IMG/VR virus record: IMGVR_UViG_3300031652_000001
Strand: one strand, 5' to 3'
DNA: 64,000 nucleotides
Origin: a virus
Part shown: piece by piece, positions 9,558 to 52,184 of the stretch
Numbering within the stretch: position 1 is the stretch's first letter
Layout: every line of letters starts with the position of its first letter
Notes under the pieces: generated by a model
The model's input: the letters and a program-made list of their open reading frames with translations, nothing else
What the model was told of the DNA's origin: nothing
Databases searched by the model: none
Made by a program: the position numbers and the translations under genes

Positions 9558-9645
9558 CTTCGGACATCTCGTCCGGCATCTACGAACAAACTTACTCATT
9601 CTAAATGCGAAGTCAAGTTCATGTTTTCATGTTTTGGTGTTTTTT
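9558..9645 (-). promoter_or_regulatory. Promoter TTGACT-N16-TAAGTT plus leader hairpin (copy 2 of 3)
   Basis: AGATGC-CGGAC-GAGAT-GTCCG-AAG; upstream AAAAACACCAAAACATGAA block shared with copy 3. Confidence 0.7.
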
Positions 9646-9672
9646 AGAGAAAAGATAAAAGCCCCACCACAC

Positions 9673-10134
9673 TTACGTTTTTCTTTTCTTTGCCCATCTC
9701 GAAGGTAAGGCCCCACCATCGGACAACCAATCACTGAGGGATAAAATCAGATCGGCGAATTCCACCTCAACACTGGTGTTTACCTCATCACGTCTATTGA
9801 GAACCATATCGGCCAGATTCAACATCCTGCCAAGTTTTTGATTCGGGTTGATCTCCTCCCTCTCTATCGTCGGCTTTCCGACTTTCTTTACAGGAACAGG
9901 TTTTGAATCTGTTGCCTTGGCAACCGGTCTGGGTTCTGGAATAGATTTTGCTATGTTTATAGGCCAAGCATCCTCATTCCCGCATCGACCACCGGCTTTG
10001 CAGAAATCACATTTTTTATTCGGAAGAGAAGGATCTATCGAAGATAGATCACACTTCCCAACCGAAAACAACCGACATTTCATGACGCCATCAATTTTGA
10101 CACAAGCTGTCGTTATGTGTTTTTTCTTTGCCAT
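9673..10134 (-). CDS. Hypothetical protein (Cys-rich N-terminus, DWLSDGGALPSRW C-terminus)
   Basis: 153-aa ORF, AGGAG SD. Confidence 0.55.
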   Translation of the reverse strand: MAKKKHITTACVKIDGVMKCRLFSVGKCDLSSIDPSLPNKKCDFCKAGGRCGNEDAWPINIAKSIPEPRPVAKATDSKPVPVKKVGKPTIEREEINPNQKLGRMLNLADMVLNRRDEVNTSVEVEFADLILSLSDWLSDGGALPSRWAKKRKT

Positions 10135-10164
10135 TTTTTACTCCTGACGATTTTTTCTGAAACG

Positions 10165-10494
10165 TTACCTCTTTTTCTTCTTTGACAGGGATTCGAGATG
10201 CGCTTGGGCGATCCTGCCTGCTTCTTCATCACTTTCTGCATCAAAATATTCCTGAGGCATCGTCATGAATTCTTCTTTGGTGAGCGCTCTTTTTTCAGGA
10301 AGCAACTCAACCTTGTCAACCTTGTACCGAGCAATAAAACGATTGCAATCCGGATTGTAACAACGGACTTCCATCGTTGTTTCATCCATCATGATCATTC
10401 TCAAAGGAGCTGTCGGGTGACATCTTCCATGAATATGAGCCGGAAAATCTCCGCACAACTCACAACCTACTGTTTTAGCTTTATTTTTTGCCAT
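10165..10494 (-). CDS. Zn-binding hypothetical protein
   Basis: CELC, HGRCH, CYNPDC. Confidence 0.55.
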   Translation of the reverse strand: MAKNKAKTVGCELCGDFPAHIHGRCHPTAPLRMIMMDETTMEVRCYNPDCNRFIARYKVDKVELLPEKRALTKEEFMTMPQEYFDAESDEEAGRIAQAHLESLSKKKKR

Positions 10495-10506
10495 TTTTTT
10501 ACTCCA

Positions 10507-10821
10507 TTACTTGTTTTCTTGAAAACTATCTCGAAGCTCACGCATCCTCTTTCGGACACAACTCCGCTGACACCTGTCCGCTGCACAAGTTGGCGCCGTT
10601 TCGAACGGAAGGCTATCGCAAAGCTGATCTGCAACATACCTAACCTCATCATTGTTCGTCTTGTATGAAATCCAACAACCAGCAATATACTGGTCGAACA
10701 CACATCTTACAGCTGTTTTTGATTCAGACCGACGACCGTATTTATCAACAAAATGAACAGCTTCACTTTTGTCTGAAAAAAGAAAATCAACAAAATTCTG
10801 AATTTTTTGTTCCATGAACAT
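10507..10821 (-). CDS. Hypothetical protein
   Basis: First ORF after promoter copy 3. Confidence 0.45.
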   Translation of the reverse strand: MFMEQKIQNFVDFLFSDKSEAVHFVDKYGRRSESKTAVRCVFDQYIAGCWISYKTNNDEVRYVADQLCDSLPFETAPTCAADRCQRSCVRKRMRELRDSFQENK

Positions 10822-10829
10822 ACCTTTTT

Positions 10830-10908
10830 CTTCGGGCTTCTAGCCCGGCATCTGAATAAAAAGGTATCATCTTCGTAGGTGAAGTCAAGTTCATGTTTTG
10901 GTGTTTTT
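10830..10908 (-). promoter_or_regulatory. Promoter TTGACT-N16-TACCTT plus leader hairpin (copy 3 of 3)
   Basis: AGATGC-CGGGC-TAGAA-GCCCG-AAG; lies at the late/early boundary. Confidence 0.7.
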
Positions 10909-10934
10909 GATTTTTTAGGTAAAAACAGGAAAGA

Positions 10935-11969
10935 TCAATCCATCGCAAGCCAGGAATGAGAATCGATACCTGCCTTTGACATTGCTGCCAAAAGTTCCCG
11001 ATAGGACATCTTCTCGATAACCTTTCGGTTCTGAATAACCCATGCCCTAAACTTTTTCACTGCCGTCTTCCAGCCCCTCTGTGGTGGTATTGTTCTGGGC
11101 TCGTTCATTTTGTCGCGCTTGTCCGCTATCAAAAAATCCTTGTACCCGGCTTCAATCCGAACCTGAGGAGTATCAATCACGATCTCCTGGTCACCAGGAG
11201 GAGCGACATCTACACCCCTCAGCTCCCGTTCTTGAATCTTTGGACCAACCCCCTGTGGATTCTTCTTAAACTGATCCACAACGCCCCTGGCCATCGCCAG
11301 GGCCTGCTTATAGGTCTTGGCTCGATGTATCTGACTCGCAAATTGACTAATCAACCTCAAAGTATTTGGATCCTTAATATAATCGAGATCATACAAAGCA
11401 AATTCATTGACATTTTTGCCGCGCTTCCCTGCATTTGTCATGTCAGTAATATGAAAAGAACTTGCAAATCGGTGAACTCTAATGACCGACGTCTCAAGAG
11501 TTTTCCCTATTGGCATCTCTTCTGCAAGAACTTTACTTTCAGCCAAATAATCCCTCTGTCTCAATGACACGCTTTCACGGTATGGTTTAGAACCTGCTTT
11601 ACCAGTAATACTCGGAAGCTTTCCCGTTGAAAGGTAAGTATCGATGGCCTTTACCACAAATTTCATCGGCGAAAAATCAGGTGTAAACGACCGCATCAAA
11701 ACAGCCTTATACAGCTTCAGATCATTCGGATCCTCACTGTTCATCTTGACACCCATCTTCTTCTCAGCATCCTGAGCAGCACCAAGAAGGAGTCCAAGTG
11801 CATTTGGATTATAATATCGTTTCTTTTTGGACCGAATGTCGTACTGGATAATTTTGCTCCCAAGTACCATATCAAATAACTTCGGCGTCGCCTTCTTACC
11901 ACTTGGTAAAGTCACTTCTGAAAGAACCCCAGTAGAAAACCCACCAACATAGCTCCTGTTCCTCAACAT
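10935..11969 (-). CDS. Predicted internal head protein / polyprotein
   Basis: N-terminal MLRNRSY...VLSE and internal SLRQRDYLAES leaders; basic; AGGAG SD before ATG at 11969. Confidence 0.6.
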   Translation of the reverse strand: MLRNRSYVGGFSTGVLSEVTLPSGKKATPKLFDMVLGSKIIQYDIRSKKKRYYNPNALGLLLGAAQDAEKKMGVKMNSEDPNDLKLYKAVLMRSFTPDFSPMKFVVKAIDTYLSTGKLPSITGKAGSKPYRESVSLRQRDYLAESKVLAEEMPIGKTLETSVIRVHRFASSFHITDMTNAGKRGKNVNEFALYDLDYIKDPNTLRLISQFASQIHRAKTYKQALAMARGVVDQFKKNPQGVGPKIQERELRGVDVAPPGDQEIVIDTPQVRIEAGYKDFLIADKRDKMNEPRTIPPQRGWKTAVKKFRAWVIQNRKVIEKMSYRELLAAMSKAGIDSHSWLAMD

Positions 11970-11994
11970 CTCACACTCCTTCCTCAAAGAGACG

Positions 11995-13185
11995 TCAGAG
12001 AGACGTCAGAAGACCAGTCTCTTTCTCAAAAATACTACGAAGTCTGTCGACATAAATATCGTCATACTCCGCTTTCACCTTGTTGCTATATCCCCTTTTC
12101 GCTCCCATCGTAATCCGTCCAAAGGTAACCTTGTAAGTGTCCATTGGTGTCAACTTTATCTTCACATAGTTGATGCCACCTTTGGCCTTCGGAAGCTTAA
12201 ACGAAAGAGAATCCCTATCACCGGCAATATTTTTCGCCCCCGTCATTGCAATAAACCTGTTTCCCCCAAGTTGCCTCATTATTTCCTTCGGAATCGATAA
12301 GTCCGTTTTTGGCTTATCCTCTTTTTCCTTCTTTGGCTTCGGAATGCCCTTGCTCGGAGTGAAGGCCCCAACATCAACCATCGAACTCAAAAAAACTGAA
12401 GCCCTATTCCCAATATCGATAGCGAAATTGGGACCATAATCCTTGGATTTTACCCCCAGCTCCTGCAACACCTGAAAAAGAACTGGATCACTCAAAGCAT
12501 CAGGTTTGTAACCAGATATCTGAAGAGCCTTCAACGCCGTCGGCGCTTTCACTGTACTCCCTGTTATTTTACCTTTGACGACAAGAACATATTCTTTCAT
12601 CTTAGGAAACCTCAGAACATTATCCTTCCTCGGATTAGGAACAGACTTAGGAGTCTTCGTAGAAGGAGCAATACCGGGCACTGTGGCTGATTTCTTCGTT
12701 GGCCTTGCCCCTTCGTTGCCCGCATTATAAGAAGGCTTCACACGCCCTCTGGTTGACGCCTTCAATGTCCCCATGGTCTTCGTCCTGGCCATCTCATTAT
12801 GAGATGACAAATCAGCTCCAGACGGAGGGACATGAACACCTTTCATCGTGATCTCTTCAAGCCATGGAATCTTTCTGTCATGGTTCTGAATAGAAAGCTT
12901 CTCAGCCGATTCCAACGCATCATACCCCACGGACAGGGCCTGTGCATATGTCCTCGCTCGCTTCATCCAGTTAATGGCTTTCTGGATAGGAGTAATCGAT
13001 TTCGACATCTCATCAAAATATATGACGAACCGATTTACCGTTGCTCCTTTTTGACCAGCAGTTCTCAACTCTGTTACTGACACATAGTTGTTTCCTCTAT
13101 GTATACGAAGAACACCGGTATCCAAAATAGCACCGGGTTTCACCGCTTCTGCCAAGTACGCTCGCCTCCTCAATGTCTTCGTCAT
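11995..13185 (-). CDS. Predicted internal head protein, multidomain (C-terminal QLGGNRFIAMTGAKN domain)
   Basis: MTKTLRRRAYLAE leader; first domain paralogous to the neighbouring ORF; AGGAGG SD. Confidence 0.6.
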   Translation of the reverse strand: MTKTLRRRAYLAEAVKPGAILDTGVLRIHRGNNYVSVTELRTAGQKGATVNRFVIYFDEMSKSITPIQKAINWMKRARTYAQALSVGYDALESAEKLSIQNHDRKIPWLEEITMKGVHVPPSGADLSSHNEMARTKTMGTLKASTRGRVKPSYNAGNEGARPTKKSATVPGIAPSTKTPKSVPNPRKDNVLRFPKMKEYVLVVKGKITGSTVKAPTALKALQISGYKPDALSDPVLFQVLQELGVKSKDYGPNFAIDIGNRASVFLSSMVDVGAFTPSKGIPKPKKEKEDKPKTDLSIPKEIMRQLGGNRFIAMTGAKNIAGDRDSLSFKLPKAKGGINYVKIKLTPMDTYKVTFGRITMGAKRGYSNKVKAEYDDIYVDRLRSIFEKETGLLTSL

Positions 13186-13195
13186 TGGTAGCCTC

Positions 13196-13344
13196 CTACT
13201 GTACCTTCTTTGCCCTGGCAATTGTCGCCGCCGGTATTGTGTCAAAAACCTTCTGACCCATGAAATTATGACTCACAACATATTCCACTTTGACTACCTT
13301 ACCCTTTGAATAAGTAGTCGTGTAAATGTCTTCAATGGTTTCAT
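13196..13344 (-). pseudogene. 49-aa micro-gene broken by a 1-nt deletion after MK
   Basis: AGGAG SD plus ATGAAACCATT; one extra A gives MKTIEDIYTTT...TIARAKKVQ, ending at the SD of the next gene. Confidence 0.4.
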
Positions 13345-13353
13345 GTTTTTCTC

Positions 13354-13899
13354 CTATGAAACCGACCTTGCAAAACTCTTTGCGGCCTCTTTTGACTGTT
13401 CCACTGTTTTTATTTTTCTACCCCGGAACTTGTTATCAACCAAATCGGCAGAATCAGGAACTACTTTCCCGACAGGAAAACAACAGTAGGCTCTATGACT
13501 CCAACCACAATATCCCCGCTCTCTATTTGAATATCCTATTGACTTAAATTTGTGAGTAGATTTGGCTTTCAATGGCTTTTCTATTCCAAGCTTGCGATAA
13601 AATTTTTGCCATCTACTTTCTTCTTTCTGCCGTCTTTTTCTGCCCCTACCTTCGCTTAAAACCTCAGCAGACATAAAAAGACCAATGATGGACTCCATCA
13701 TCCCCATGGACCGCAATATGTTATCAGCTGTAACAAATGTCGCTATGGAAGACAGCTTTCTCTCCTGATTACCAACACGGAGAAACCACATCTTCCCTTC
13801 CTTTGACAACGTCGCAATACCGAACTTGGTCTCCTTTCGATATCGAGGCGGTTCCTTCGATGGCCAACTCCTAGATGTTTTCTCCCACTCAGTATTCAT
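13354..13899 (-). CDS. Predicted two-domain internal protein (C-terminal IGYS...GWSHRA domain)
   Basis: Internal MESIIGLF...VLSE linker between two basic domains. Confidence 0.5.
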   Translation of the reverse strand: MNTEWEKTSRSWPSKEPPRYRKETKFGIATLSKEGKMWFLRVGNQERKLSSIATFVTADNILRSMGMMESIIGLFMSAEVLSEGRGRKRRQKEESRWQKFYRKLGIEKPLKAKSTHKFKSIGYSNRERGYCGWSHRAYCCFPVGKVVPDSADLVDNKFRGRKIKTVEQSKEAAKSFARSVS

Positions 13900-14150
13900 T
13901 TTCTATCCTTGAAGCAATCGCATTTGAATCGCTTCACAACGACACCTGGCCGTATTAGTTTACCTGGTATTAAGCCCTTGCAGACAGGACACATGTACAT
14001 CCCCTTACCAACATACGAAAACCGTTTCCCGTTCAGGATAATATCCCGTCGTCTTCGAAATATTGAAATCACAACAAGAGAAACAAACAGAAAGAAAAAC
14101 AGAGAACATGCCAAGATACAGATTACATTTCCCAAACCAAACCAATCCAT
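13896..14150 (-). CDS. Small membrane protein with Zn-ribbon
   Basis: N-terminal TM helix; CPVC...CDC. Confidence 0.5.
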   Translation of the reverse strand: MDWFGLGNVICILACSLFFFLFVSLVVISIFRRRRDIILNGKRFSYVGKGMYMCPVCKGLIPGKLIRPGVVVKRFKCDCFKDRK

Positions 14151-14168
14151 TTCTTAAAGTGTTTTTCA

Positions 14169-14534
14169 TCAGTACTTCGAAAAATATGATTTGCCTTTGA
14201 ACTTATTTATGAATGCTTTGATCTCTCGAACATCCTCAAGAGCAAGCATATCATTTTCAGACAAACCAGCTTTTTTTGCACTGTCAGAAACAACTTTCAT
14301 TGCAGCTTCAAAAGCAAGAATTCCTCGCCTAAATTTATTTGTAAAGGCCCTCCTAATTTCCATTGAGAATTTCGTCCAAAGAAGACTCTTTTCCGATTCA
14401 TCAATACTGGTATATGATCTCCTCCTTAACGAATTCTCTGTTTTCGAACTACAATTCTTTTCAGTCTTGTTACGGGACCGTTTTCTTTTCTGTTTACGGT
14501 CTCCTTCTTTGATTTTAATCCCGTGCCACTGCAT
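14169..14534 (-). CDS. Predicted internal head protein
   Basis: SLRRRSYTSIDES motif; GAGGAGG SD before MQWHG. Confidence 0.5.
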   Translation of the reverse strand: MQWHGIKIKEGDRKQKRKRSRNKTEKNCSSKTENSLRRRSYTSIDESEKSLLWTKFSMEIRRAFTNKFRRGILAFEAAMKVVSDSAKKAGLSENDMLALEDVREIKAFINKFKGKSYFSKY

Positions 14535-14544
14535 AATAACCTCC

Positions 14545-14925
14545 TCAAGACACCGTAAAAACCAGGTCATACTTGTCCAATGGATCTTCTACAGATCCAG
14601 CACCGGCAGCAACAATATTTCCGTACAAGACCTGTTTCTTTCCCTTGTTGTCCGAAAATGGAAATTCAAGCTTCCATGTCTTTTTCTCAGGTTGCCCGCT
14701 TTTGTTCTTCGTATAGAAGTTCTCAGTTGACTTCCAGTTAATACCTTTCTTGTTCATTTCATCGTAAAACCACTTTATAGGTCTCCAATACTGATCTGAA
14801 AAGAACCCGTTGAATCTGGTGCCAACGATCCCGAACAAAACCTTCTTCGCCGCCTGTTTCGTTTTTCCATCAAGCGATGAACCACCTTTTCCCTCGCCAA
14901 GATATGACCTCTTCCTTAAAGTCAC
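14545..14925 (-). CDS. Predicted internal head protein (GAGSVEDPLDKYD domain)
   Basis: N-terminal MTLRKRSYLGE leader. Confidence 0.6.
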   Translation of the reverse strand: MTLRKRSYLGEGKGGSSLDGKTKQAAKKVLFGIVGTRFNGFFSDQYWRPIKWFYDEMNKKGINWKSTENFYTKNKSGQPEKKTWKLEFPFSDNKGKKQVLYGNIVAAGAGSVEDPLDKYDLVFTVS

Positions 14926-14934
14926 AGCGTCCTC

Positions 14935-15423
14935 CTATTCGTTGTCAATGGCTGCCCATATGCTTCCGGCAGCAACAGTACCAGCAACACCAAGGACAAC
15001 TCCTGTAATTATACCAATACTAAGTTTATGCGTTTGCCACCATGAATCCCTGATTTTCTGTAGAGCCTCTTCCTTCTGATCTATTGTCTTGTCGGCACTC
15101 ATCAGCTCCCGCTCCTGGATCTGGATGATGGTAAGCAGAGCTTTCTTGTTGCTCAGTGCCAACTGGTAGACCTCGTCATAGGAGATCCGAAGCTCGACAG
15201 CTGCACCAGCTTTGGTCTCATCCAGAAGTACCCCATTAAACGGTGCTGGATCACCCTCTGACAAACCAGCTGCATCTCCTGAGCTTGGAGCCAAGTATTC
15301 TGGCATCACTGATACCTCCTCAGCTTTCTCGGTAATAGGGAGCCGTTCAGGAGTGCTTGGAGGAGGGGTGTTCTTTGTACATCCAATAACGAACAATGAA
15401 AAAATCAAAATAAAACGCAACAT
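14935..15423 (-). CDS. Lipoprotein with C-terminal TM helix; unimolecular-spanin topology
   Basis: Lipobox-like FVIGC, Pro-rich linker, coiled coil, C-terminal TM (IGIITGVVLGVAGTVAAG); near holin-like genes. Confidence 0.6.
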   Translation of the reverse strand: MLRFILIFSLFVIGCTKNTPPPSTPERLPITEKAEEVSVMPEYLAPSSGDAAGLSEGDPAPFNGVLLDETKAGAAVELRISYDEVYQLALSNKKALLTIIQIQERELMSADKTIDQKEEALQKIRDSWWQTHKLSIGIITGVVLGVAGTVAAGSIWAAIDNE

Positions 15424-17187: not shown

Positions 17188-17520
17188 TTACAGATTGTTT
17201 TTCAAAAGACTGGCAAGCTTTTTCCGTCTGGTAACCCCATCGGGTTCTTTCCGGATCTCCTCAAGCTCTTTCTTCTTCGCCGTAGATTTCTCCTTAATGA
17301 TTGCCTGCTCAACCTTGACATCCGTGAGCGCCTCAATGGCTCGCTGCTTTGCAACTTGGACGTAAGAGACAGACTTCTTGGAAGCGGTATCCTCAATAGC
17401 TTCCTGCTCCTTCTCATCACGCTTTATGAAGCCAACAACAGTTACCGCACCAAGAACAAGCAAGATCAACCACCAAAACATCTTGAGTACATTCCATATC
17501 CAAAGCCCTACCGATTTCAT
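17188..17520 (-). CDS. N-terminal TM plus coiled coil (i-spanin-like topology)
   Basis: FWWLILLVLGAVTVVGFI followed by a charged helix; next to the holin candidate. Confidence 0.45.
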   Translation of the reverse strand: MKSVGLWIWNVLKMFWWLILLVLGAVTVVGFIKRDEKEQEAIEDTASKKSVSYVQVAKQRAIEALTDVKVEQAIIKEKSTAKKKELEEIRKEPDGVTRRKKLASLLKNNL

Positions 17521-17532
17521 CTTTTTCTCCAA

Positions 17533-17886
17533 TCAGTTCTCATCCGATATGTTTGCTTTCGCAGCATTTCTCGAAGCCTTACTCCCCATCAACATCTTGA
17601 TCCGATCACCAAACATCTGTCTGACAATCCCATACGTTGTCGCCGAAAGAGAACCAGCCACAAGTCCAATAATGGCATTTTGAGCCGTCTCCTTCATCGG
17701 TGACAGCTGAGGAATCATCGCCAGACCAACACCGAGAAATACCGGCAATATCCTCAAAATGGCTTTCCACAACTTCGTGTTCTCAATTTTATCGGGAAGA
17801 ATCTGGCGTATCACCCAGATTATTGTCCCAACACCCAACAAAATTAGGACGGTGTTTTGATTAATAATTGCATCTACAACACTCAT
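17533..17886 (-). CDS. Holin candidate
   Basis: 117 aa, three hydrophobic segments, charged C-terminus. Confidence 0.6.
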   Translation of the reverse strand: MSVVDAIINQNTVLILLGVGTIIWVIRQILPDKIENTKLWKAILRILPVFLGVGLAMIPQLSPMKETAQNAIIGLVAGSLSATTYGIVRQMFGDRIKMLMGSKASRNAAKANISDEN

Positions 17887-18065
17887 GAGTCATCTCCTTC
17901 TACTTCCTTAGCAAACTCATCAAGGAGCTTGGTAAGCTTATCAGCCAATACCTTAGAGGCTGACATTCCTCTTTTGGCTGCAATCTTAGTCAACAATATG
18001 AACAATTTCCTTGGAACAGCCATAGGAACGATCACATAGTTGGCCTGGTCCTTTTCGCTTATCAT
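17883..18065 (-). CDS. Ribbon-helix-helix (CopG-like) DNA-binding protein
   Basis: VPMAVPRKLFILLTKIAAKRGMSASKVL. Confidence 0.55.
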   Translation of the reverse strand: MISEKDQANYVIVPMAVPRKLFILLTKIAAKRGMSASKVLADKLTKLLDEFAKEVEGDDS

Positions 18066-18745
18066 TTTCTCGTATATCTATCGGCCATACTCCGAAAGTC
18101 TTTTGCACTATACGGATATATGCCGCCACCTATTTGCATGGTCTCAGAAAATGACAATGGTAGATTAGCGTACCTCGTGTTCCCAGTCTGAAACCAATTC
18201 ATCCGGCTCACAGCAACCTCATCAAGATGGACGTAAATGCCGTTTCCACCACTCTCAAAACCATACTGAGATTGACCAAACGTCTCACCAGCAGCCCAGT
18301 TGACACCAAGGGATACCTTTGGTGCAAACAACCACAAGACAGGTGGAGCAACCGAAACAACACTATCACCTATGGTGCTATAAGAAAGAGTCCCAAGCAT
18401 TCTCAACCAAGCTATGGCGCCCTCAATGTCAACGTTGAACTTATCTTCATCAACATCCTTGCCTATCTCACCATCTATATCTCTAGAAAAAGTTACCGAA
18501 AAACTGATCGTGTGATCACCTCCGCTTGTCCACTGTTTCAACGGTAATGGAGATCCAGGTATTTCTATGCTTTGCCAATTAGAAGACTGACTCGTATCAA
18601 TCGTCTCAGGCCAATACTGAAGAGTTTTCTTTCCACCATATGCTTGGTTTTCTTTACCATTACTATCAAGCGGCATTATCACAAATTCAGCCGGTTTTTG
18701 ATACGTAATAAACGGACCTTCCATGCCCGAAAACGGACCAGCCAT
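18062..18745 (-). CDS. Baseplate tube-initiator protein (T4 gp48/54 or CIS-tube-like)
   Basis: QYWPETI...W..IEIPG...QWTSGGDHTISFSVTF...PPVLWL. Confidence 0.65.
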   Translation of the reverse strand: MAGPFSGMEGPFITYQKPAEFVIMPLDSNGKENQAYGGKKTLQYWPETIDTSQSSNWQSIEIPGSPLPLKQWTSGGDHTISFSVTFSRDIDGEIGKDVDEDKFNVDIEGAIAWLRMLGTLSYSTIGDSVVSVAPPVLWLFAPKVSLGVNWAAGETFGQSQYGFESGGNGIYVHLDEVAVSRMNWFQTGNTRYANLPLSFSETMQIGGGIYPYSAKDFRSMADRYTRK

Positions 18746-18748
18746 GAC

Positions 18749-20947
18749 TCAATACACCTTTCTGTCATCCACCTCAAAAACAGAGTACTGGAAGACTTCA
18801 TCACTTCCAGTACCGTTCTGGATCCTGAATCCACTACTATAATAAACATTTGCCTGACTACCGCCACTTGTTGCTCCCCAGAACCCAGCATTTCCCCATA
18901 CCAACGAAACCGCAGTCCCAACGAAAGCATACAATGCAAACTCACCAGCAACCGTGGCCCGAATCATAAACAGACCAAAATGCTGAGCTAAAGAAACCAG
19001 AATTGAATTTCCATTCGCGAGATCAAGTTCAAAACCTAGAGTGAACAAACCACCCATTCTATCGTTTGATCCTTCATATCTCCACATCCCACCCATCGTC
19101 TGCCATTCATCCTGATCCCATGGTTCAGCTTCAGCAGAAGTATCATGATAATAAACACCAAATACCTTAACGTCATCCCTCGGGTTCATTGCTATACCCA
19201 TAGCATCGAAGGAATTAGTTTTCACATCAAACCCACTGGAGGAATAAAAAGCATTTGTCGTTATCCAAGCACGATCATAATCTGGAGAACTCAACTGAAG
19301 ACCAGCATCATAAGGCTGACCGAAATCAATACCACAACCTACTAGACATCTCACAGCACTACGGACTCTGACTTCATCAAATAAATCCATGATGCCATTG
19401 TCGTTAAAATATTCAACAGAACCATTACCCCATCTCATAATCACATCAAATGGATCAGAATCCGATCTTGTTACGGCGGCAATTGAATATGGTGAAACAA
19501 GTGTTGTTGCCGCGACAGAATTCTCCAACGTAGCAATGAAAAACTTTCCTTGATAAATACCATAAACACAAATATCCCCACCAGTATTTGTTTTTATGTT
19601 TCCGTCAACAGAATCAATATAGGCACTTCCTTGAATAACAACATATCCATTCTGATTCACGTATTTTGATGTGGTTTGAGCTGTGACTCCAGAATCAGCA
19701 GCCAAACCACCATTTCGATACACTAAAGTGTATGTTGTCGATAAAGTCCTAAGATCTATCTGTGTCTCATTGACAGCACTGAGAAGCGTCTCTAGCGCCT
19801 CCTGTATCGATGACGAATTCGGTATCGTCCACCGATCATAGGGCTCAGCTCCAGTCGTTCCAGCTGCCTTTGCATACGACCTCTCAGCATGTACAAAAGC
19901 ATCCAATGTTGAATGAGGAATACTATCCAGAGTCGTTGGGATGTCCTCGATAGATACCTGCTTTGTATAAAGCAAATACACCGACGAATCGGGAACGGTC
20001 CCACCACTCGAAGACAACTGAACATACGGGTTCTCATAAAACCCATCAGCATCAGCATGCGTAGATGGAATAAGTGCTGCCGAATCATCATTGGTTCTAA
20101 GATTTGAAACATAAACTAACGAATTATCTGTAAGAACCCTTCTATCATCCCCGTATATCGATGAAGTTGACAAAACAAGGAACAGACCTCTGACTGAAGA
20201 AGTATAGGAACCATTACCAACAAAGACTTTTCCAGTAATCTGGAAACGTTCACCACTTGGAGTAAACTGTTCTTTTACCCGAACAGACATAAATCCATCC
20301 GTATATTCCTCTGTCATGAATCTATTCGTAGCACTGGGGGGAGTGGTACCCGGATAACCAGTAAATGCATCCTTCTCATCAGATGTCGGAATGGCATACG
20401 CTTGAACATTCGAGAGATACCCATATCTACGGTCAGTACTCAGAACCGATCCCTCTGTAGTGCGAAGTGGATATGGAACAGGTTTTGCTGAATCAAGAGC
20501 CTCAAAAGTAGCTTGGTCCAAACCAGTATCGGTGGCATGAATCGTTATTTTGAAAAACACCAAATCATCCTTACCGACAAGCTTGCTTGCAGATGGGACG
20601 ACATCTGTAAAAAAATATTCTCCAGTTGTTGGATTTCCGCTTGAATAATCAATCCTTATACCAACATACCATTCTTGTGTAGTGGCAGCCGGAAACAACG
20701 ATGAACAATCAATTGTGGCAACGTCCGGATCTCTTACCAATAAACCAAAACCATTTATCGTATCCCTGACAACAAACGTCCCACCATTCACTCTGAGTGT
20801 CACTGTATCAGAGTAGTCAACATCGCCACCATCATGTAAACCAGGTGGGAAAATTGCTGTCTTCCTGTTCAAACCTTCGCTGACATATGTCTCATCCCAA
20901 CGAATCTTAATCTTCTCTTGCGCCACTGATGTGGTCAGCTCTGCCAT
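18749..20947 (-). CDS. Tail fibre / baseplate-associated protein
   Basis: 732 aa, beta-rich, Gly/Ser/Thr-rich; in the fibre block. Confidence 0.6.
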   Translation of the reverse strand: MAELTTSVAQEKIKIRWDETYVSEGLNRKTAIFPPGLHDGGDVDYSDTVTLRVNGGTFVVRDTINGFGLLVRDPDVATIDCSSLFPAATTQEWYVGIRIDYSSGNPTTGEYFFTDVVPSASKLVGKDDLVFFKITIHATDTGLDQATFEALDSAKPVPYPLRTTEGSVLSTDRRYGYLSNVQAYAIPTSDEKDAFTGYPGTTPPSATNRFMTEEYTDGFMSVRVKEQFTPSGERFQITGKVFVGNGSYTSSVRGLFLVLSTSSIYGDDRRVLTDNSLVYVSNLRTNDDSAALIPSTHADADGFYENPYVQLSSSGGTVPDSSVYLLYTKQVSIEDIPTTLDSIPHSTLDAFVHAERSYAKAAGTTGAEPYDRWTIPNSSSIQEALETLLSAVNETQIDLRTLSTTYTLVYRNGGLAADSGVTAQTTSKYVNQNGYVVIQGSAYIDSVDGNIKTNTGGDICVYGIYQGKFFIATLENSVAATTLVSPYSIAAVTRSDSDPFDVIMRWGNGSVEYFNDNGIMDLFDEVRVRSAVRCLVGCGIDFGQPYDAGLQLSSPDYDRAWITTNAFYSSSGFDVKTNSFDAMGIAMNPRDDVKVFGVYYHDTSAEAEPWDQDEWQTMGGMWRYEGSNDRMGGLFTLGFELDLANGNSILVSLAQHFGLFMIRATVAGEFALYAFVGTAVSLVWGNAGFWGATSGGSQANVYYSSGFRIQNGTGSDEVFQYSVFEVDDRKVY

Positions 20948-20959
20948 GATGACATCTCC

Positions 20960-21958
20960 TCAGAATATGAAGTCGAAAGTATGCACTACTTCCAGTGGTG
21001 CAACTTTTCTCTGTTTGTCAAAAGTGAAATATCCAAGCATCACATCATTGTCATCGAATATCCCACCTTCAAAATAGTATGGAGTCCCACCATACGTTGC
21101 TCCTCGTCCATCATCGATGCCCTCCACAGCCTGTAGTTTTATCGTACATCGGACTGTCGCGTAGCCTACACCCCTGAATTCGACTTTCGTATCTGCATCG
21201 GCACCAAATGACTTCGTAAAAGTAAACAGCTCTGGATTTCCATCAGCAGCCAAAGGTGAGCTTTCAGACTCAAGCTCCGTATAGGCCAACCCAGCAGATG
21301 CATCCTTTTTCAAGTCATGATATTTGAACCTCACACGAACAATGTTTCCAAGAGTAACAGGACTCATGAACGTTACTGACAAATTTCCATTCTTGTAGTT
21401 TACAGATCCAGTTCCATTGCCTGTCAATGTTCCAGAACCAGTTGTATCGGTCATCGTTTGAACAACGACAAGACCAGGCGTCACTTCTTCTACAACAAGA
21501 GGATAATGCTTTGCATCATCTATTGGGCCTATCGCCACAGGAAGCCTGCTGACATATAGAAGACCATCTGGAGTCGAATCTGTGAAATCCTCATTCATGA
21601 CAATAAAAGTATTTCCACCTAACTCCGTTGCTCCACCTGTAGCAACCGTATAGTTGCCATTATTACCAGAAGAATTTTCAACCTTCACAAGAGCACCATC
21701 TGGAAAAAAATCGGCATGTTCACCAGAAATTTCAAACTCATTCGCAACCACATCTACACCAATGACAGAAAAGTCCCCTCCACTCACCGTGTGTGTATAT
21801 GTGCTTTCAGTTCCAGTAGCCGACTCCTCAATTACTTCCATAACCTCAGATGATAAAACAAAACCACCTTCTCCGATTTTGAAATACGAAATCCTATCCA
21901 TAACCATCTGAGCAATCGCATCCAAACCTGCCGTAGTCCGTACCGCCGTTCCACTCAT
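20960..21958 (-). CDS. Tail-collar/fibre-attachment protein (DUF3751-like) with inserted beta modules
   Basis: TTAGLDAIA...YFKIGEGG N-terminus and FEGGIFD...MLGYFTF C-terminus. Confidence 0.6.
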   Translation of the reverse strand: MSGTAVRTTAGLDAIAQMVMDRISYFKIGEGGFVLSSEVMEVIEESATGTESTYTHTVSGGDFSVIGVDVVANEFEISGEHADFFPDGALVKVENSSGNNGNYTVATGGATELGGNTFIVMNEDFTDSTPDGLLYVSRLPVAIGPIDDAKHYPLVVEEVTPGLVVVQTMTDTTGSGTLTGNGTGSVNYKNGNLSVTFMSPVTLGNIVRVRFKYHDLKKDASAGLAYTELESESSPLAADGNPELFTFTKSFGADADTKVEFRGVGYATVRCTIKLQAVEGIDDGRGATYGGTPYYFEGGIFDDNDVMLGYFTFDKQRKVAPLEVVHTFDFIF

Positions 21959-21968
21959 TTTATCCTCC

Positions 21969-22517
21969 TCACCATGAAGTATCATCCAATTTCACATGCA
22001 ATCCACTCTCATCAGTACTTGCTTCGTCAGCAGGAACAATATCAAAGTGGTAAACGATATTTACTAAGTAATATTCCTCTATGACTTCTCTCAAAATCTC
22101 ATCATGAATCGGCAATATGTCCCGTTCTATCTTCAAGAAAAGCCTTTCCCAAGCATCAGTAAGAGTAAATTGATCAGAACCAGAAATCTGCCCTGGAGTT
22201 ACACTCAACTTCACAAAATAGGTTGGGCATTTACCACAATTAACTCCACAACCACCCTCAACAGGATCATAATCAGCTGTTATTTCTGTGCCAATTACTG
22301 GACTCGGACCATAGAAATCAAAAGCTATCCACCCATTTTCATAATCAACAATCCCTATCCCAGTACCTGATAGATCCCCGAGACCATCATCTGTCAATAT
22401 TTTATCGTTTACACCATCCCTACACAAGATGACCAAAGATCCAGGAATTATCGGATAACAACCAAGTTGAATCAGATAAACATCTTCACCAGTAGCAAAT
22501 TCCCAATCAAACGCCAT
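21969..22517 (-). CDS. Baseplate wedge protein, probable C-terminal half of a P2 gpI-like subunit
   Basis: Shared beta module followed by ERL...ILPIH end motif. Confidence 0.5.
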   Translation of the reverse strand: MAFDWEFATGEDVYLIQLGCYPIIPGSLVILCRDGVNDKILTDDGLGDLSGTGIGIVDYENGWIAFDFYGPSPVIGTEITADYDPVEGGCGVNCGKCPTYFVKLSVTPGQISGSDQFTLTDAWERLFLKIERDILPIHDEILREVIEEYYLVNIVYHFDIVPADEASTDESGLHVKLDDTSW

Positions 22518-24878: not shown

Positions 24879-27671
24879 CTATACAGCAAAAACGTCACTT
24901 ATTGATGCATAGTATGCACTACCACTGTAGTAAACAGTGACAATCTTCCTTTCATATGCAAGTATAGAAAACGGTGGCCCTGCATTATCCCAATACCATG
25001 TCGCCGGAAAATAAACCGAGACAGAACTAGTTGCATAAAACCTGATCTGAAATTTTCCTGGATATAAAGGAGCCGTTACTGTCCAAGAGTTGATGCTCGT
25101 ACTTGTCCCACAATAGAAAAAGTTGTTGTCATTGAAGTCGATTGCACAATCATTCGAAACAACACTTAAAGCTGTTTCAGCTGTTGAACCAAAAAAAGCC
25201 GATCCTTCATTAACAAGGATTGGACCACCTTCAAATTGAAGGTGGCCACTCCCAATATTTATCTCAGCATATGTTGTATCCCTGTGAATTTGTATCCACT
25301 GGGTATTATCTGTATCAGGATCTGTCTGACTAAACAAATAAATCGATGGAGAAGACATCGTATCAAGTCGGTCATGATCCTTCGCGTAATTTGCATCAGT
25401 AGTGAGAATCAAGTTGTAATTTATAGAACTTGAAAAAGCCCAATGGAAACCATCATCCGTATATGAACTCATCGTTGATGTAGTTCCACTTGAATATATA
25501 AAATTTAAATATTCAGTAAGGGAACTAGAAACCTTTATCGTAAGCGTACCGTCTATCTCGACATCAGCCTCAAATAAAGACGCCGTTTCAGCCCACAGAC
25601 CAGTATCCTCAAGACGAAGATGATCTCCAGTTTGAACTTTTATGTTCAAATCAGAGTAACTATCTATATACATTCGAGCATAAATATCGTTATCGACACT
25701 CGGATCTGAATTTCCAAAAATGTACAAAGCTGGAGAATTGTACGACGTACTTATTCCATGAGTCTGACCAACATAATCGTATTTCACAAAAGCAAAAACG
25801 TTCCGATGTTGAGCAGCAAGGTGCAATCCATCATCCAAGCTCTTGTCAAATTGAGCAATCTGTGTCGTACCATTATACAGCTTATATGCATCTGAAATTA
25901 CCTGAGTCCCTACTTCAAGAGAACCATCTATATAGACATCACCTTGAGCCGAAGCGAAATCAGGAGTCGCAATTGTTCCAAGTTTTATATATCCAGAACC
26001 AGTATTTATAACAGCAGCTGGAATCGTAGAGTCATACATAAAGTACATATATTGTGTATTATCAGTATCAACACTGGTCGATCCATATACGAAAACATGA
26101 ACTGTATCGTCCGCAATACCTTGATCATGATCCCTTGGGTAATTACCCAAGGTCGTGAACATTATGTGATTATTACCACTGCTCGCATCAACACCTGGAG
26201 AAATATGGATACCATCATCATACTCAAAACCAACTTTTAAAGCCTCATTAGTATTGTTACGACCAACAAACCATGGAACATCTCCAGCAATAGAAACGCT
26301 AAGGGCTCCACTAGAACTCGCATCATCACAATCTATGTTCAAACCATACCCACCCGTTGAGCTTGGAACAGTAAGAACAATCGTACCATTTATCGTATTT
26401 CCATTATCATGAGCCGACTGCAAAGATTGATTTCCAGCAGTATAAATCGCACCCAATAATGAAACACCATCTCCAAATCTTGTTACATAATTCGACCATT
26501 CTGTGCTCGAAGAGGCAAACCTAAAAGGATTCGTATAAGTAGAAGAACCCTTATATTGATCAGTGAAGAGAAGAGTACTATCTCCACCAATTGTCGTGGT
26601 ACTGCTCGAACTACCAGAAGCGCCAACCGAAACCGTTGCCGCATACGAAGAATTCGCAGATGCAGAAATAGTGAGATCAGCCGCAGCACCAGCCGACTGA
26701 GATAAAACGTTCACCGTAGATGTAAAGACACCTGTCGTTTCGGCACTCATATTCAGAGTCGGCGTACCGGCCCCTGAAGCCTTCAACGTAACATCTGATG
26801 TACCACCAGCCGTTCCAGCTGTGTCGGCCTGTAGAACCAGTGCAGTTGCCCCTCCAGGGGCTTTTGCCGATACCTCAGCACCAACCGTTTGAGTTGCATC
26901 ACCAGAAGACCGCAAATACAGATCTGCTCCTGTACAGCTCCCAGTGGCCTGAGAAAGAACTGCTACAGAAATTGGAGTAGCAGTAGCCGACCTCGCATTT
27001 TTTAACGAAAAGGAATCATGACTTGCCTCAAGAACAGGAGAACCAGAGTCATAGTAAGACCTATACATCTCTGTTCCAGCTGCCGAGAATCCCAATATCC
27101 CATCACCAGCAAGATACATTCCAGTGTCTTGATCAGCATAAAAACTGTAGCTCGGATCAGCTGCACTCTTTGATCCAATTTTCACACCAGAAATAAAATT
27201 CACAGGATACAGAAAAACTCCCGGATCATCATATCCCCAGCTGTACCCTCCATCAAACAATGAGAGAACCCCATTGATTTTTTCCTCGTATCCACGAGCC
27301 CCATTATATGGACTTTGAGAATTATCCTGGTTTGTCTCATTCAGTGCAGGGAGACTTGCTCCACTGTTTGCGAGTGGAATCCCGAGATACAAAGTTTTTT
27401 TCTGCTCATCTATTCCACCGGCATTAACCGTGAGACGAACAAGATATCCATAGCTGGTCGACAACGTGAATTCACACGTATGACTCGTTGGATTTATCAC
27501 CGTAATTGTCTCACCTGGAGGAGCGCTTATAATCTCCCAAAGATATGACGACTCCGATTTGTTTTGGGCTTCGCACTCCACAACGCCAGCCGAAAGATCC
27601 CTTCTGGCACGATCCCAATAGCTATACCCAACACCAGCTGGTTGATTTATTCTGAATGAAGCTAGAGCCAT
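24879..27671 (-). CDS. Long tail fibre protein
   Basis: N-terminal PKD-like domain (YLWEIISAP...YLVRLTVN), Ala/Ser/Gly/Thr-rich shaft, three DDGxH repeats. Confidence 0.7.
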   Translation of the reverse strand: MALASFRINQPAGVGYSYWDRARRDLSAGVVECEAQNKSESSYLWEIISAPPGETITVINPTSHTCEFTLSTSYGYLVRLTVNAGGIDEQKKTLYLGIPLANSGASLPALNETNQDNSQSPYNGARGYEEKINGVLSLFDGGYSWGYDDPGVFLYPVNFISGVKIGSKSAADPSYSFYADQDTGMYLAGDGILGFSAAGTEMYRSYYDSGSPVLEASHDSFSLKNARSATATPISVAVLSQATGSCTGADLYLRSSGDATQTVGAEVSAKAPGGATALVLQADTAGTAGGTSDVTLKASGAGTPTLNMSAETTGVFTSTVNVLSQSAGAAADLTISASANSSYAATVSVGASGSSSSTTTIGGDSTLLFTDQYKGSSTYTNPFRFASSSTEWSNYVTRFGDGVSLLGAIYTAGNQSLQSAHDNGNTINGTIVLTVPSSTGGYGLNIDCDDASSSGALSVSIAGDVPWFVGRNNTNEALKVGFEYDDGIHISPGVDASSGNNHIMFTTLGNYPRDHDQGIADDTVHVFVYGSTSVDTDNTQYMYFMYDSTIPAAVINTGSGYIKLGTIATPDFASAQGDVYIDGSLEVGTQVISDAYKLYNGTTQIAQFDKSLDDGLHLAAQHRNVFAFVKYDYVGQTHGISTSYNSPALYIFGNSDPSVDNDIYARMYIDSYSDLNIKVQTGDHLRLEDTGLWAETASLFEADVEIDGTLTIKVSSSLTEYLNFIYSSGTTSTMSSYTDDGFHWAFSSSINYNLILTTDANYAKDHDRLDTMSSPSIYLFSQTDPDTDNTQWIQIHRDTTYAEINIGSGHLQFEGGPILVNEGSAFFGSTAETALSVVSNDCAIDFNDNNFFYCGTSTSINSWTVTAPLYPGKFQIRFYATSSVSVYFPATWYWDNAGPPFSILAYERKIVTVYYSGSAYYASISDVFAV

Positions 27672-27681
27672 GTCATCCTCT

Positions 27682-28158
27682 CTACGTTATGGTACCTATG
27701 ACTTCACCACTCACATGTGGTCCAGTTGTTGTAAAGCTCGTTCCCGAATACCATATCTCAGAAACTTCAACGTTGAAGCCATGAATGGCACATAAAACCT
27801 TATAGGCATTCTCTGTTCCTTTTATGAGACGCCACCTTCCGGCAATCTCTATCTTTGTCCGTTGAAACTCCTCTGGCTCATCTAAATCGGGAACAATGCC
27901 GAAATTCCCCGCTATATACCTGAGTAAATCTGTTCTTGCCGTCCTTGGATCAAGAACATAATCATGAGACCTGTATATCAAATACCTGAGCTGATTGAAC
28001 GATGGCACAAGACATCGAACAAACTTCTCATACCATCCACCATTATCAAGATCTTCTTTCTTCTTATTCTCGGGAAGCTCCTCCCATAAAACCTGATATG
28101 CCCAATCAATCTGGCCAAAAGGTTCATCTCCAAACGGTCCACTTCCAAAGCCGCTCAT
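27682..28158 (-). CDS. Baseplate wedge subunit (P2 gpI-like), N-terminal half
   Basis: DPRTA...LLRYIA..FG...R..I.......IKGT motif; FGSGPFGDEPFG N-terminus. Confidence 0.65.
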   Translation of the reverse strand: MSGFGSGPFGDEPFGQIDWAYQVLWEELPENKKKEDLDNGGWYEKFVRCLVPSFNQLRYLIYRSHDYVLDPRTARTDLLRYIAGNFGIVPDLDEPEEFQRTKIEIAGRWRLIKGTENAYKVLCAIHGFNVEVSEIWYSGTSFTTTGPHVSGEVIGTIT

Positions 28159-28162
28159 TACA

Positions 28163-28582
28163 TCACCCTACGAGATTCCTGAAAACAACATTTGTTCCTC
28201 TTCTCAATGCAAGGAATACTTTGTTGTAATTATCACCAATTGAATCACCAACACTTATTGTGAGAATCTTTGACCCTTCTACTGGCCTTGCAACTTCTAC
28301 GTAAGCAATCTTTCCATCTTCAAACCCTGTCAAAGTGTTCGCAGAAATAGTCATATCTCCACCAGACAATGTCGATAAAAGGTGAAAGTCTTCTGTCCAT
28401 TCCAATGTATCAGCACCACTGTTCAAAGTTATTGTTCCACCACCTGTCAGGACTAAACATGGATTTTCTATTCCAATAAAAACATCAGCATCAATCCTGT
28501 TTATCATAGCCTTGAAAATAGAATACCAATTTGGTTGGTTTTCAGGTGGATACTCATATCCCATTTTGCTTGTTCTTGGCAT
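28163..28582 (-). CDS. Baseplate/fibre accessory protein (paralog A)
   Basis: Aligns end to end with 28596-29024. Confidence 0.55.
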   Translation of the reverse strand: MPRTSKMGYEYPPENQPNWYSIFKAMINRIDADVFIGIENPCLVLTGGGTITLNSGADTLEWTEDFHLLSTLSGGDMTISANTLTGFEDGKIAYVEVARPVEGSKILTISVGDSIGDNYNKVFLALRRGTNVVFRNLVG

Positions 28583-28595
28583 TTAACTATCTCCA

Positions 28596-29024
28596 CTATA
28601 AAACAACAACATTGTAAAAACTCGGATGCATAATCAATTCGTTTCCGAATCTTTTCGACACGAAACACCTATTTCTTATTGTTGATAAAGTGCTTTCTAC
28701 AAATAATGTAGATGTAAGCAAATCATCCATCGGTCTCGACATTTCAAGAAAAATAACAGAACCATCCTCTACTCCAGAAACAGAACCCGGATCTATCATC
28801 GTTCTAAAACCAGTTATTAAAGAATAAATCCCTATTTCCTCAGACCATGTAACCGTGTTCTGATTGAGAATCATTTCACCACCGTAAATAATGGTGTTTG
28901 TGAATTCAATTACAGAAAGAATATCAGAATCCATATCCGACATCATGTCCTTGAATAGTGAATACCATCCCTTCTGTTTTCCATCAGGATATGGCCACTT
29001 CAATCTTGTTGTTCGCTGCATCAA
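28596..29024 (-). CDS. Baseplate/fibre accessory protein (paralog B)
   Basis: RT....YP...Q..WYS.FK.M...D.D shared with paralog A. Confidence 0.55.
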   Translation of the reverse strand: MMQRTTRLKWPYPDGKQKGWYSLFKDMMSDMDSDILSVIEFTNTIIYGGEMILNQNTVTWSEEIGIYSLITGFRTMIDPGSVSGVEDGSVIFLEMSRPMDDLLTSTLFVESTLSTIRNRCFVSKRFGNELIMHPSFYNVVVL

Positions 29025-29031
29025 TTACACT

Positions 29032-31746: not shown

Positions 31747-31749
31747 CTT

Positions 31750-32121
31750 TTAACCCTCCGTCGGTACAGACACCGAAGTATCCTTTCTTACACCCAAATA
31801 AGAATATGCGACTTGAATGTCGACAGGATCATTATCGCTTTCAGCTTCTATGACGTCAACGTTTAGTACGTTTATGACCGGAAGGTGAGCATTCAAAGCA
31901 ATAGTAATTTCACGTCTCGCAAGAGCAACAAGTAATAATCCCTGATTCTCAAAAACAAGACGAATCACTTCACTTCCATGATTGGTGTTCATCTTCCGTT
32001 CACCAAGTGTCGTGAAAATAATGTCATCAATTGCCTGATTTATAACATCCTCATCATACTCAAACCGTGGAACACCGCTCTTCCATGGCCAAGAAACACC
32101 TACAAGACCGCTTATAGCCAT
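31750..32121 (-). CDS. Baseplate wedge / sheath initiator (gp25/GPW-like)
   Basis: INQAIDDIIFTTLGERKMN..HGS. Confidence 0.85.
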   Translation of the reverse strand: MAISGLVGVSWPWKSGVPRFEYDEDVINQAIDDIIFTTLGERKMNTNHGSEVIRLVFENQGLLLVALARREITIALNAHLPVINVLNVDVIEAESDNDPVDIQVAYSYLGVRKDTSVSVPTEG

Positions 32122-41344: not shown

Positions 41345-41563
41345 TTACATCAACCCACGCAACAAACTGTTTTTATCCCTTTTTCTTTTCTTCTTTGGTG
41401 GTTTGAGTTTTCTCGAACCGATTCGCTCAGAAGCCTTTGACAAAACATCAATCGAAAGAGCCCTCGCTCGACGTCTTCTCACAACAGCAAACGGCTTCAC
41501 TATCGAAGGAACATCTGAAGAAGTAGTAAGCTCCGAAAGATATCCTCTTTTCCTTAGACTCAT
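41345..41563 (-). CDS. Small basic predicted internal head protein
   Basis: MSLRKRGYLSE leader; very Lys/Arg-rich. Confidence 0.55.
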   Translation of the reverse strand: MSLRKRGYLSELTTSSDVPSIVKPFAVVRRRRARALSIDVLSKASERIGSRKLKPPKKKRKRDKNSLLRGLM

Positions 41564-48753: not shown

Positions 48754-48862
48754 CGTTTACCCCGTAATACCAAAACTACTTTTTCTTGGTACTCAATATC
48801 TCAAAATCTCAAAACACTTGTCCTTTTTTAGTCTGGCAAGAAAGATCAAACATGACTCCTCC

Positions 48863-49700: not shown

Positions 49701-49701
49701 A

Positions 49702-50205: not shown

Positions 50206-50208
50206 TCA

Positions 50209-50592: not shown

Positions 50593-50602
50593 CGCTCATC
50601 TC

Positions 50603-52182: not shown

Positions 52183-52184
52183 CG

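Follow-up and report, generated by a model that had tools for sequence, protein, structure and literature searches.

An arginine-rich leader on diverse proteins of an uncultured myophage as a probable counterpart of the T4 capsid targeting sequence

Introduction

The principle of the capsid targeting sequence (CTS) has been known for bacteriophage T4 since 1996. The tagged set of T4 consists of three internal proteins plus Alt, and the prohead protease gp21 cleaves at the motif (L/I)-x-E. The propeptides of the T4 internal proteins, which are 10–19 amino acids (aa) long, first direct these proteins to the core and are afterwards cleaved off (PMC9026906, in which the T4 cleavage motif is referred to by comparison only). 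The T4 CTS has the sequence MKTYQEFIAE (PMC8442874). Here, an Arg-rich leader was analysed in IMG/VR record IMGVR_UViG_3300031652_000001. The window, i.e., the whole stretch that was analysed, comprises 64,000 nt and is one long minus-strand gene block of an uncultured myophage. The sequence M-x-L-R-[RK]-R-x-Y-[LIV]-x-E was confirmed as an 11-residue N-terminus shared by diverse cargo proteins. This leader is probably a lineage-specific propeptide analogous to the T4 CTS, with an estimated probability of about 0.65.

The leader resembled the T4 CTS in several respects. It was a short N-terminal putative propeptide of 11 residues, within the length range of the T4 propeptides, and it ended in the same aromatic-aliphatic-x-Glu pattern, YLxE here and FIAE in T4. 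As in T4, the tag was found on small, basic, mutually unrelated, and non-conserved proteins, the repertoire of which varied between close relatives, and the phage carried genes for a Gp23-family capsid protein and an S77-family protease. In another lineage, one of the cargo families (D) carried a T4-like leader, MKTFAQIIRE. Unlike in T4, the motif doubled as an internal junction, and the leader coexisted with at least two other types, amphipathic leaders ending in VLSE or LIE and EDVELDE linkers. The number of tagged genes was also different, at about 10–19 per genome, and the phage is known from sequence alone.

The phiKZ-like giant phages have a gp21-related protease (phiKZ gp175 and SPN3US gp245) and many head-internal proteins, among them ejection and inner-body proteins, that are cut after Glu, with redundant sites and with cargo families that are paralogous and variable, as here (PMC9026906, PMC5694885). 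However, their sites are of the S/A-x-E type and their propeptides are mostly longer than 100 aa with no common short tag, whereas the present phage combined [LIV]-x-E with an 11-residue tag. In the DarB/Dar anti-restriction system of P1, a protein directed against host defence enters the capsid by means of an N-terminal segment and is co-injected (PMC9024508). Unlike the present leader, that signal is ~30 aa long and belongs to a single 250-kDa protein instead of being family-wide, and no LxE cut is linked to it in PMC9024508.

A further likeness concerns the polyvalent proteins, multi-module conflict-domain proteins whose presumed route of delivery is together with the DNA (Iyer et al. 2017, PMC5512222). 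The relatives of the present phage encoded module chains of 1061–1678 aa, one of which had zincin motifs. In contrast to the polyvalent proteins, a recurring junction of protease type (EDVELDE or the Arg-rich motif) lay between the modules here, which implies cutting into separate proteins. The literature search returned no paper describing the Arg-rich leader or extending CTS-like tags to uncultured lineages. Particular to this case are the Arg-rich sequence class and its occurrence beside two further kinds of junction, as well as the leader stub and the Tad6 link, all described below.

Results and discussion

An Arg-rich N-terminus shared by diverse proteins

Relatives of the window were retrieved from IMG/VR via the capsid protein (62–74% identity) and comprised G001 (78 kb), G002 (142 kb, 86% complete), G003 (48 kb), and shorter pieces. 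In addition, individual proteins led to L041 and L042, near-identical JGI contigs of ~161 kb. L041 was 94% identical, and the close relatives compared were 88–94% identical.

All motifs listed in the initial annotation were recovered in place on the minus strand. The pattern L-R-[RKQNH]-R-x-Y-[LIV]-x-E occurred in the window four times exactly and twice in degenerate form, compared with ~0.002 expected occurrences. In rough gene sets of the window and its relatives, the strict pattern LR[KRQNH]RxY[LIVF]xE was found 3–8 times per genome, and the motif was more than 1000 times commoner than in residue-shuffled proteomes (mean ≤0.002, 1000 shuffles). When the 19,396 nine-mers of the window were scanned with a position-specific scoring matrix (PSSM) built from 35 leaders, the scores were bimodal, with six sites at 13.6–29.1 bits and the next best at 6.7 bits.

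The window and its relatives contained 45 distinct motif copies. The Leu residue lay exactly two codons past an ATG or GTG in 33 of the 45, giving the 11-residue leader, and GGAGG or another Shine-Dalgarno sequence usually preceded the start. Internal copies were found in cargo C, in module 2 of cargo A, and in some relatives. The Tyr residue was conserved in 40 of 42 copies, Glu at position 9 in 35 of 42, and Leu, Ile, or Val at position 7 in 35 of 42. The conserved residues were encoded by all six Leu codons, by AGA, AGG, and CGN for Arg, by TAT and TAC, and by GAG and GAA. None of the conserved residues was tied to a particular codon, and it is therefore the peptide, rather than the DNA, that is under selection. 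The peptide MTLRKRSYLGEGKGG is a candidate substrate of the S77 protease.

A degenerate DNA pattern of the leader was searched across 2.9 million IMG/VR contigs and matched 12 stretches, 8 of them in this clade. These included a tandem array of three tagged genes (L033) and an array of eight (L029). The other four stretches lay in unrelated records, two of which were complete 40-kb genomes, and none of the four led an open reading frame (ORF).

Leader exchange and modular cargo

Modularity was the strongest line of evidence. When orthologous cargo proteins were compared, differing LxE-type leaders terminated at the same aligned position. The window protein encoded at 51550–52182 started with MKIVSINALLGRTVQNLIE/MS (i.e., ...NLIE/MS; the slash marks the putative cut) and was aligned with orthologues in G002 and G003 that started with MTLRHRGYITE/ and MGLRRRSYLAE/. 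Module 2 of cargo A followed SLRQRDYLAE/ in the window, and the leaders of its orthologues ended in ...LLSE, ...SIEE, or ...VLEE. The orthologues of cargo E carried MGLRKRAYLAE in G001 and MEDHERFDE/ITTS in G002.

Loss and replacement of cargo were seen in the closest relatives. L042 lacked cargo B and retained cargo D. L041 lacked cargo D, and a stub, GTG ACT TTG AGA AAA AGG TCA TAC TGA, which reads MTLRKRSY-stop, remained at the same place as the window leader, from which it differed at synonymous positions. The L029 array, beside a homologue of the lipoprotein gene that borders the window array, was syntenic and contained different cargo; a lipoprotein homologue was likewise present beside the G002 array.

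The cargo D family had 672 representatives at E ≤0.001 and 447 at E ≤1e-10. Five of the homologues listed carried leaders of the Arg-rich type (class 1). The homologue P0036 started with MKTFAQIIRE/G, close to the T4 CTS, and further leaders in the family were MKLKDLLLGE, MRLKKLLTE, MKLKSILKE, MKRSELRILIKE, and MKKNEFQKILQE. Since the homologues bear such varied leaders, one domain takes whichever leader its lineage uses. A tblastn search of cargo D against cultured phages gave no match. The domain itself (14545–14892) had a nearly invariant C-terminal block, AAGAGSVEDPLDKYD, and was usually the C-terminal module of longer proteins.

The same modules were also found in fused form. Giant ORFs were present in G001 (17479–22512), G002 (48489–51674), and G003 (9594–12932), with lengths, in ascending order, of 1061, 1113, and 1678 aa. 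They contained up to ~17 short modules separated by a near-identical linker, EDVELDE followed by Gly, Ala, or Lys. Judging from their sequences, these ORFs resemble polyproteins from which a protease releases virion cargo. One EDVELDE-flanked module of the G001 polyprotein was homologous to module 1 of cargo A, which in the window was bounded by GVLSE/ and SLRQRDYLAE/. In the G002 polyprotein, FRQREYLTE/ preceded a phrog_9437 domain, which also ends cargo B. In the window this domain comprised ~100 aa (11995–12290, minus strand; ...QLGGNRFIAMTGAK...TPMDTY...TGL.T.L); it ended many otherwise unrelated metagenomic proteins of 265–559 aa, one of which started with DUF3008.

G003 also encoded a 1094-aa protein (27432–30716 in reverse-strand coordinates) with the zincin-type motifs HEMGH and HELGH. 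An internal ...MGLRRRSYIEE/ preceded its 94-residue C-terminal module. Because this internal class-1 motif keeps Met-Gly, an in-frame fusion of two once-separate genes is suggested.

Head protease and capsid propeptide

The major capsid protein and the prohead protease were assigned by Pfam (Table 1). The protease also matched phrog_207 (2.9e-44), with the GELDHP and GVSSRGFG blocks conserved. Its C-terminal part was a fused coiled coil of scaffold-like character, which was strongly acidic, as was the neighbouring 333-aa protein. The protease is presumed to be the enzyme that removes the leaders. When protease residues 25–205 were modelled as a complex with the N-terminal 40 residues of one tagged protein, the score was 0.00, which was weighed neither way. 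The protease ORFs of G001 (29093–31924) and L027 (7114–9822) contained an insertion of ~400 aa, probably an intein, inside the catalytic domain, at a point corresponding to residues 102–108 of the window protein.

The capsid propeptide ended in RLKRKVLSE69/S (56910–56936). Position 7 of the Gp23 Pfam model corresponded to capsid residue 82, which placed the propeptide site just before the aligned region. In seven relatives the propeptide end was [LIM]K[RQNH][KRQH][YFVAL]LxE/[SA]T, with K63, L67, and E69 invariant. When ranked with the leader PSSM, the capsid site was 19th of 19,396 nine-mers in the window, and 12th of 22,429 and 8th of 10,825 in two further genomes; it was in the top 0.1% in three of four genomes. 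The earlier observation that the capsid propeptide ends like the leaders holds, in the form of a basic-aromatic-L-x-E-type site of modest similarity.

The tetrapeptide of the window capsid site, VLSE, occurred seven times in the window proteome compared with 0.54 expected. It was located near the N-termini of cargo A, of the Tad6-like protein, and of the 49702–50205 product, and twice in one head-module protein. Leaders of a second type, amphipathic and with VLSE or LIE at the end (MRFTVRESIIMLESLVEDQVGIVLSE, MKIVSINALLGRTVQNLIE, and ...MESIIGLFMSAEVLSE), were seen at 49702–52601 and 13651–13899, both on the minus strand.

Proposed role of the leader

The tagged proteins would join the core of the assembling prohead, where the gp21-type (S77) protease would cut after the Glu of [YF]-[LIV]-x-E, so that the leader would be lost. 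The mature proteins, which are mostly basic, would remain alongside the packaged DNA and probably pass into the host together with it. The same motif would serve as an internal junction where adjacent cargo genes have been fused. Cleavage does not appear to need the Arg triad, because the same phages have acidic (EDVELDE) and neutral (VLSE, LIE) junctions; the triad therefore probably carries sorting information. It might bind an acidic core or scaffold, and the C-terminal part of the protease and the 333-aa protein are speculative docking partners. The core of this proposal, a distinct Arg-rich leader on diverse cargo with a tie to the gp21-type protease, is supported by the selection at the peptide level, the N-terminal position, the [FY][LI]xE end, and the likeness to the capsid site, and further by the swapping of leaders, the stub left after cargo loss, and the T4-like CTS on the same cargo family. 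The initial annotation had described a distinct Arg-rich code that loads proteins into the head, is removed, and leads to their injection. The distinct code and its tie to a gp21-type protease were supported, whereas loading, leader removal, and injection are kept here as proposed steps.

Several observations weigh against this interpretation. Only the last four positions of the leader matched the T4 CTS, and the first seven (MxLRRRx compared with MKTYQE) were unrelated; for this reason, the leader is regarded as an analogue or distant variant of the T4 CTS and not as a member by sequence. Among the copies with an ATG or GTG at most five codons upstream, 15 of 43 sat in frames that were open for at least 30 aa further upstream, and some of these 15 may never be N-terminal. 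The likeness of the capsid propeptide was modest, and the G002 site was outside the top 26 of that genome. Cargo E was located in the tail-gene block, next to the tail tube and sheath genes, and not among the head genes. The T4 late-promoter motif TATAAATA was not enriched, with two copies seen and 1.5 expected. Finally, 113 of 167 D-family homologues were without a recognisable LxE leader, and the D domain is thus not restricted to capsid delivery.

A broader form of the proposal is tentative. According to it, the Arg tag docks on the acidic core independently of the cut site, beside the amphipathic leaders and the EDVELDE junctions, and the capsid is filled with rapidly exchanged pre-made effectors, including a Tad6-type inhibitor, which act before phage expression. 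The 11-residue tag would then be portable and orthogonal to the T4 CTS.

Alternative explanations

It is rather unlikely that the motif is only an extended recognition and cleavage site of the protease, with the tagged proteins serving in assembly as parts of the core or scaffold, to be degraded or retained afterwards and neither sorted by the tag nor delivered. The use of the motif as an internal junction and the similar end of the capsid propeptide agree with this explanation, as does an internal SLRRRNFVSE in an acidic protein of G001, the gene of which lies upstream of that for the portal. However, the junctions that lack the triad indicate that the protease does not need it. In addition, core parts would be expected to be conserved, whereas this cargo was gained and lost between phages that are 88–94% identical, and it was basic, as the DNA-associated internal proteins of T4 are.

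If the leader were instead recognised by a different partner, for example a chaperone, an export route, or, in RiPP-like fashion, a dedicated modifying enzyme, its LxE end would be incidental. This seems improbable. A superficial likeness to the twin-arginine motif of Tat signal peptides was noticed, but none of the 42 cargo proteins had a hydrophobic stretch (a 12-residue segment with a mean Kyte-Doolittle value ≥1.6) within 40 aa downstream of the motif, and the leader is therefore not a Tat or Sec signal. No enzyme gene was common to the arrays of the window, L029, L033, and G002, most of these records being fragments, and the cut position was aligned with different LxE leaders in the orthologues.

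There is very little probability that the N-terminus is a nucleic-acid-binding peptide that rides on DNA or RNA or regulates its own mRNAs. Although three arginines and one aromatic side chain are present in the motif, and the cargo is basic overall, the Tyr, Leu, and Glu residues at fixed spacing were conserved as strongly as the arginines, acidic or neutral LxE leaders substituted for the motif on orthologues, and the motif was also a polyprotein junction. An element at the DNA or RNA level (promoter, translation signal, or recombination site) that is translated by chance can practically be dismissed: recombination break-points do fall at the leader, as the L041 stub indicates, but codon choice was free at every conserved residue, and a DNA-level element was rejected in the absence of a conserved nucleotide string under the motif.

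Properties of the cargo proteins

Mature cargo proteins (n = 42) had a median length of 114 aa, and 90% of them had an isoelectric point above 9.5, compared with 20–30% of the proteomes. In an all-versus-all comparison of 27, the cargo proteins were mostly unrelated, and the earlier description of a set of unrelated basic proteins thus holds for most of them. It does not hold for cargo A and B, compared as 10935–11987 and 11995–13245, in which the domains that follow the motif are paralogues (E 2e-13, with 31% identity over 128 aa). Searches of Pfam and PHROGs with the 42 cargo proteins gave weak matches or none, and the PDB sequence search and the ESM Atlas feature search with the cargo were empty.

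The domain conserved in cargo A and B was modelled by AlphaFold2 with a predicted local distance difference test (pLDDT) score of 89. No Foldseek match at E ≤0.001 was found for this model in the PDB or BFVD, and the best VIA Z score was 4.5. The AlphaFold2 model of cargo D had a pLDDT of 71 and gave only weak NTF2-like rows (E 0.03–0.05), in addition to unnamed Atlas clusters; its residues 1–15, which include the leader, had a pLDDT below 50 and were disordered. Mature cargo E resembled the capsid protein at and beyond the maturation site of the latter (residues 63–89) when compared with the window proteome (52% identity over 27 aa, E 0.001). From this sequence likeness, it may be a mimic of the capsid N-arm or a partial duplicate of the capsid protein.

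Tad6 homologue in the cargo array

Tad6 binds ThsB and blocks type I Thoeris, according to a review (PMC13728456). The product of 13354–13899 matched the Pfam family PF25188 (Tad6) with 5.8e-14 and 52.8 bits (gathering cut-off 27). The Tad6 domain comprised residues 98–181, corresponding to model positions 47–145 of 145; the N-terminal third of the model was replaced by the leader region, and this extension ended in VLSE/G. A 59%-identical homologue, P0013, had a 25-aa leader ending in ALCE/GK. The G002 homologue matched the family with 2.8e-21 and 76.5 bits.

The G002 homologue was preceded by ATG TAT ATT AGT CTT TGA CGC AGA GGG TAC TTG ATC GAG, a class-1 leader, MYISL-TGA-RRGYLIE/GGK, in which an in-frame TGA replaces the first Arg (L012 1688–1726, corresponding to G002 21688–21726). 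The TGA could have arisen from CGA by mutation, could reflect an error in sequencing, or could be read through. Initiation at a TTG inside the leader would yield a protein devoid of it.

The initial annotation had regarded the cargo as candidate anti-defence or host-takeover factors. The Tad6 homologue in the array suggests that some of the cargo is anti-defence, and the support is limited to this single case.

Gene context

The features of the window are listed in Table 1. The order of the cargo array was lipoprotein, D, C, membrane protein, Tad6-like protein, B, and A. Cargo D started with GTG and had a GGAGG Shine-Dalgarno sequence. A scan for sigma-70 promoters and terminators gave background levels. 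In cargo C, the motif SLRRRSYTSIDE (14397–14429; PSSM 14.0 bits) was present as annotated, but it lay at residues 36–46 and not at the N-terminus; the start MQWHG was conserved in L041, in which the motif was kept as SIEE. In cargo B, the leader was followed by the conserved cargo domain and then by the C-terminal phrog_9437 domain. The leader of cargo A, MLRNRSY...GVLSE, was located at 11916–11969 and its internal junction, SLRQRDYLAE, at 11538–11567.

The head-region protein had been taken to carry a variant of the motif (TLRRHALYEDDLAE, 54796–54834), which did not stand: the site was outside the PSSM top 26, and the orthologues bore other leaders of 20–30 aa ending in LAE/SK. The intein-like insert of the portal protein, with an HNH endonuclease, comprised residues ~305–665; the portal match was split in two, and HNH PHROG matches were found at residues 407–567.

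The closest capsid protein of a cultured phage had only 32% identity to that of the window. A capsid-protein profile widened the clade by three IMG/VR contigs only (L026–L028), and a profile search of a metagenome collection returned a few short fragments and contigs already known from IMG/VR.

Table 1. Features of the 64,000-nt window
Feature	Position	Strand	Remarks
Cargo A (344 aa)	10935–11969	(-)	two modules
Cargo B (396 aa)	11995–13185	(-)	leader MTKTLRRRAYLAE at 13147–13185
Tad6-family protein (181 aa)	13354–13899	(-)	N-terminal extension, VLSE at 13651–13662
Small membrane protein (84 aa)	13896–14150	(-)	inside array, without leader; conserved in L041 and L042
Cargo C (121 aa)	14169–14534	(-)	46-aa basic propeptide (putative) ending LRRRSYTSIDE
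Cargo D (126 aa)	14545–14925	(-)	class-1 leader VTLRKRSYLGE (reads MTLRKRSYLGE) at 14893–14925
Lipoprotein gene	14935–15423	(-)	conserved upstream border of cargo array
Cargo E (72 aa)	41345–41563	(-)	leader MSLRKRGYLSE at 41531–41563
Tail tube	42263–42760	(-)	
Tail sheath	43649–45799	(-)	
Head-region protein (92 aa), conserved	54613–54891	(-)	longer leader ending DDLAE/SK
Major capsid protein, T4 Gp23 family	55620–57116	(-)	PF07068, 3.4e-54, 185 bits (cut-off 24.4)
Prohead protease, Peptidase_S77 (T4 gp21 type)	57162–58718	(-)	PF03420, 1.1e-18, 67.9 bits (cut-off 27)
Portal	61198–63984	(-)	928 aa; HNH-intein-like insert

Biological significance

If the proposed role is correct, the tag would reveal from the sequence the proteins of this lineage that are packed into the head and probably injected. 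This set would comprise ~10–19 genes per genome, nearly all unannotated, with a turnover between near-identical phages. It would be a good hunting ground for anti-defence and host-takeover functions, one member being homologous to a validated Thoeris inhibitor. A tag orthogonal to that of T4 could also serve phage-based protein delivery. Cleavage and sorting information would be separable, since junctions of acidic and neutral type occur in these phages as well, and the same cargo domain would cross lineages by a change of tag. Sorting of the CTS type would then be general to heads with a gp23-type capsid and a gp21-type protease and not a peculiarity of the T-even phages, with an address peptide that depends on the lineage.

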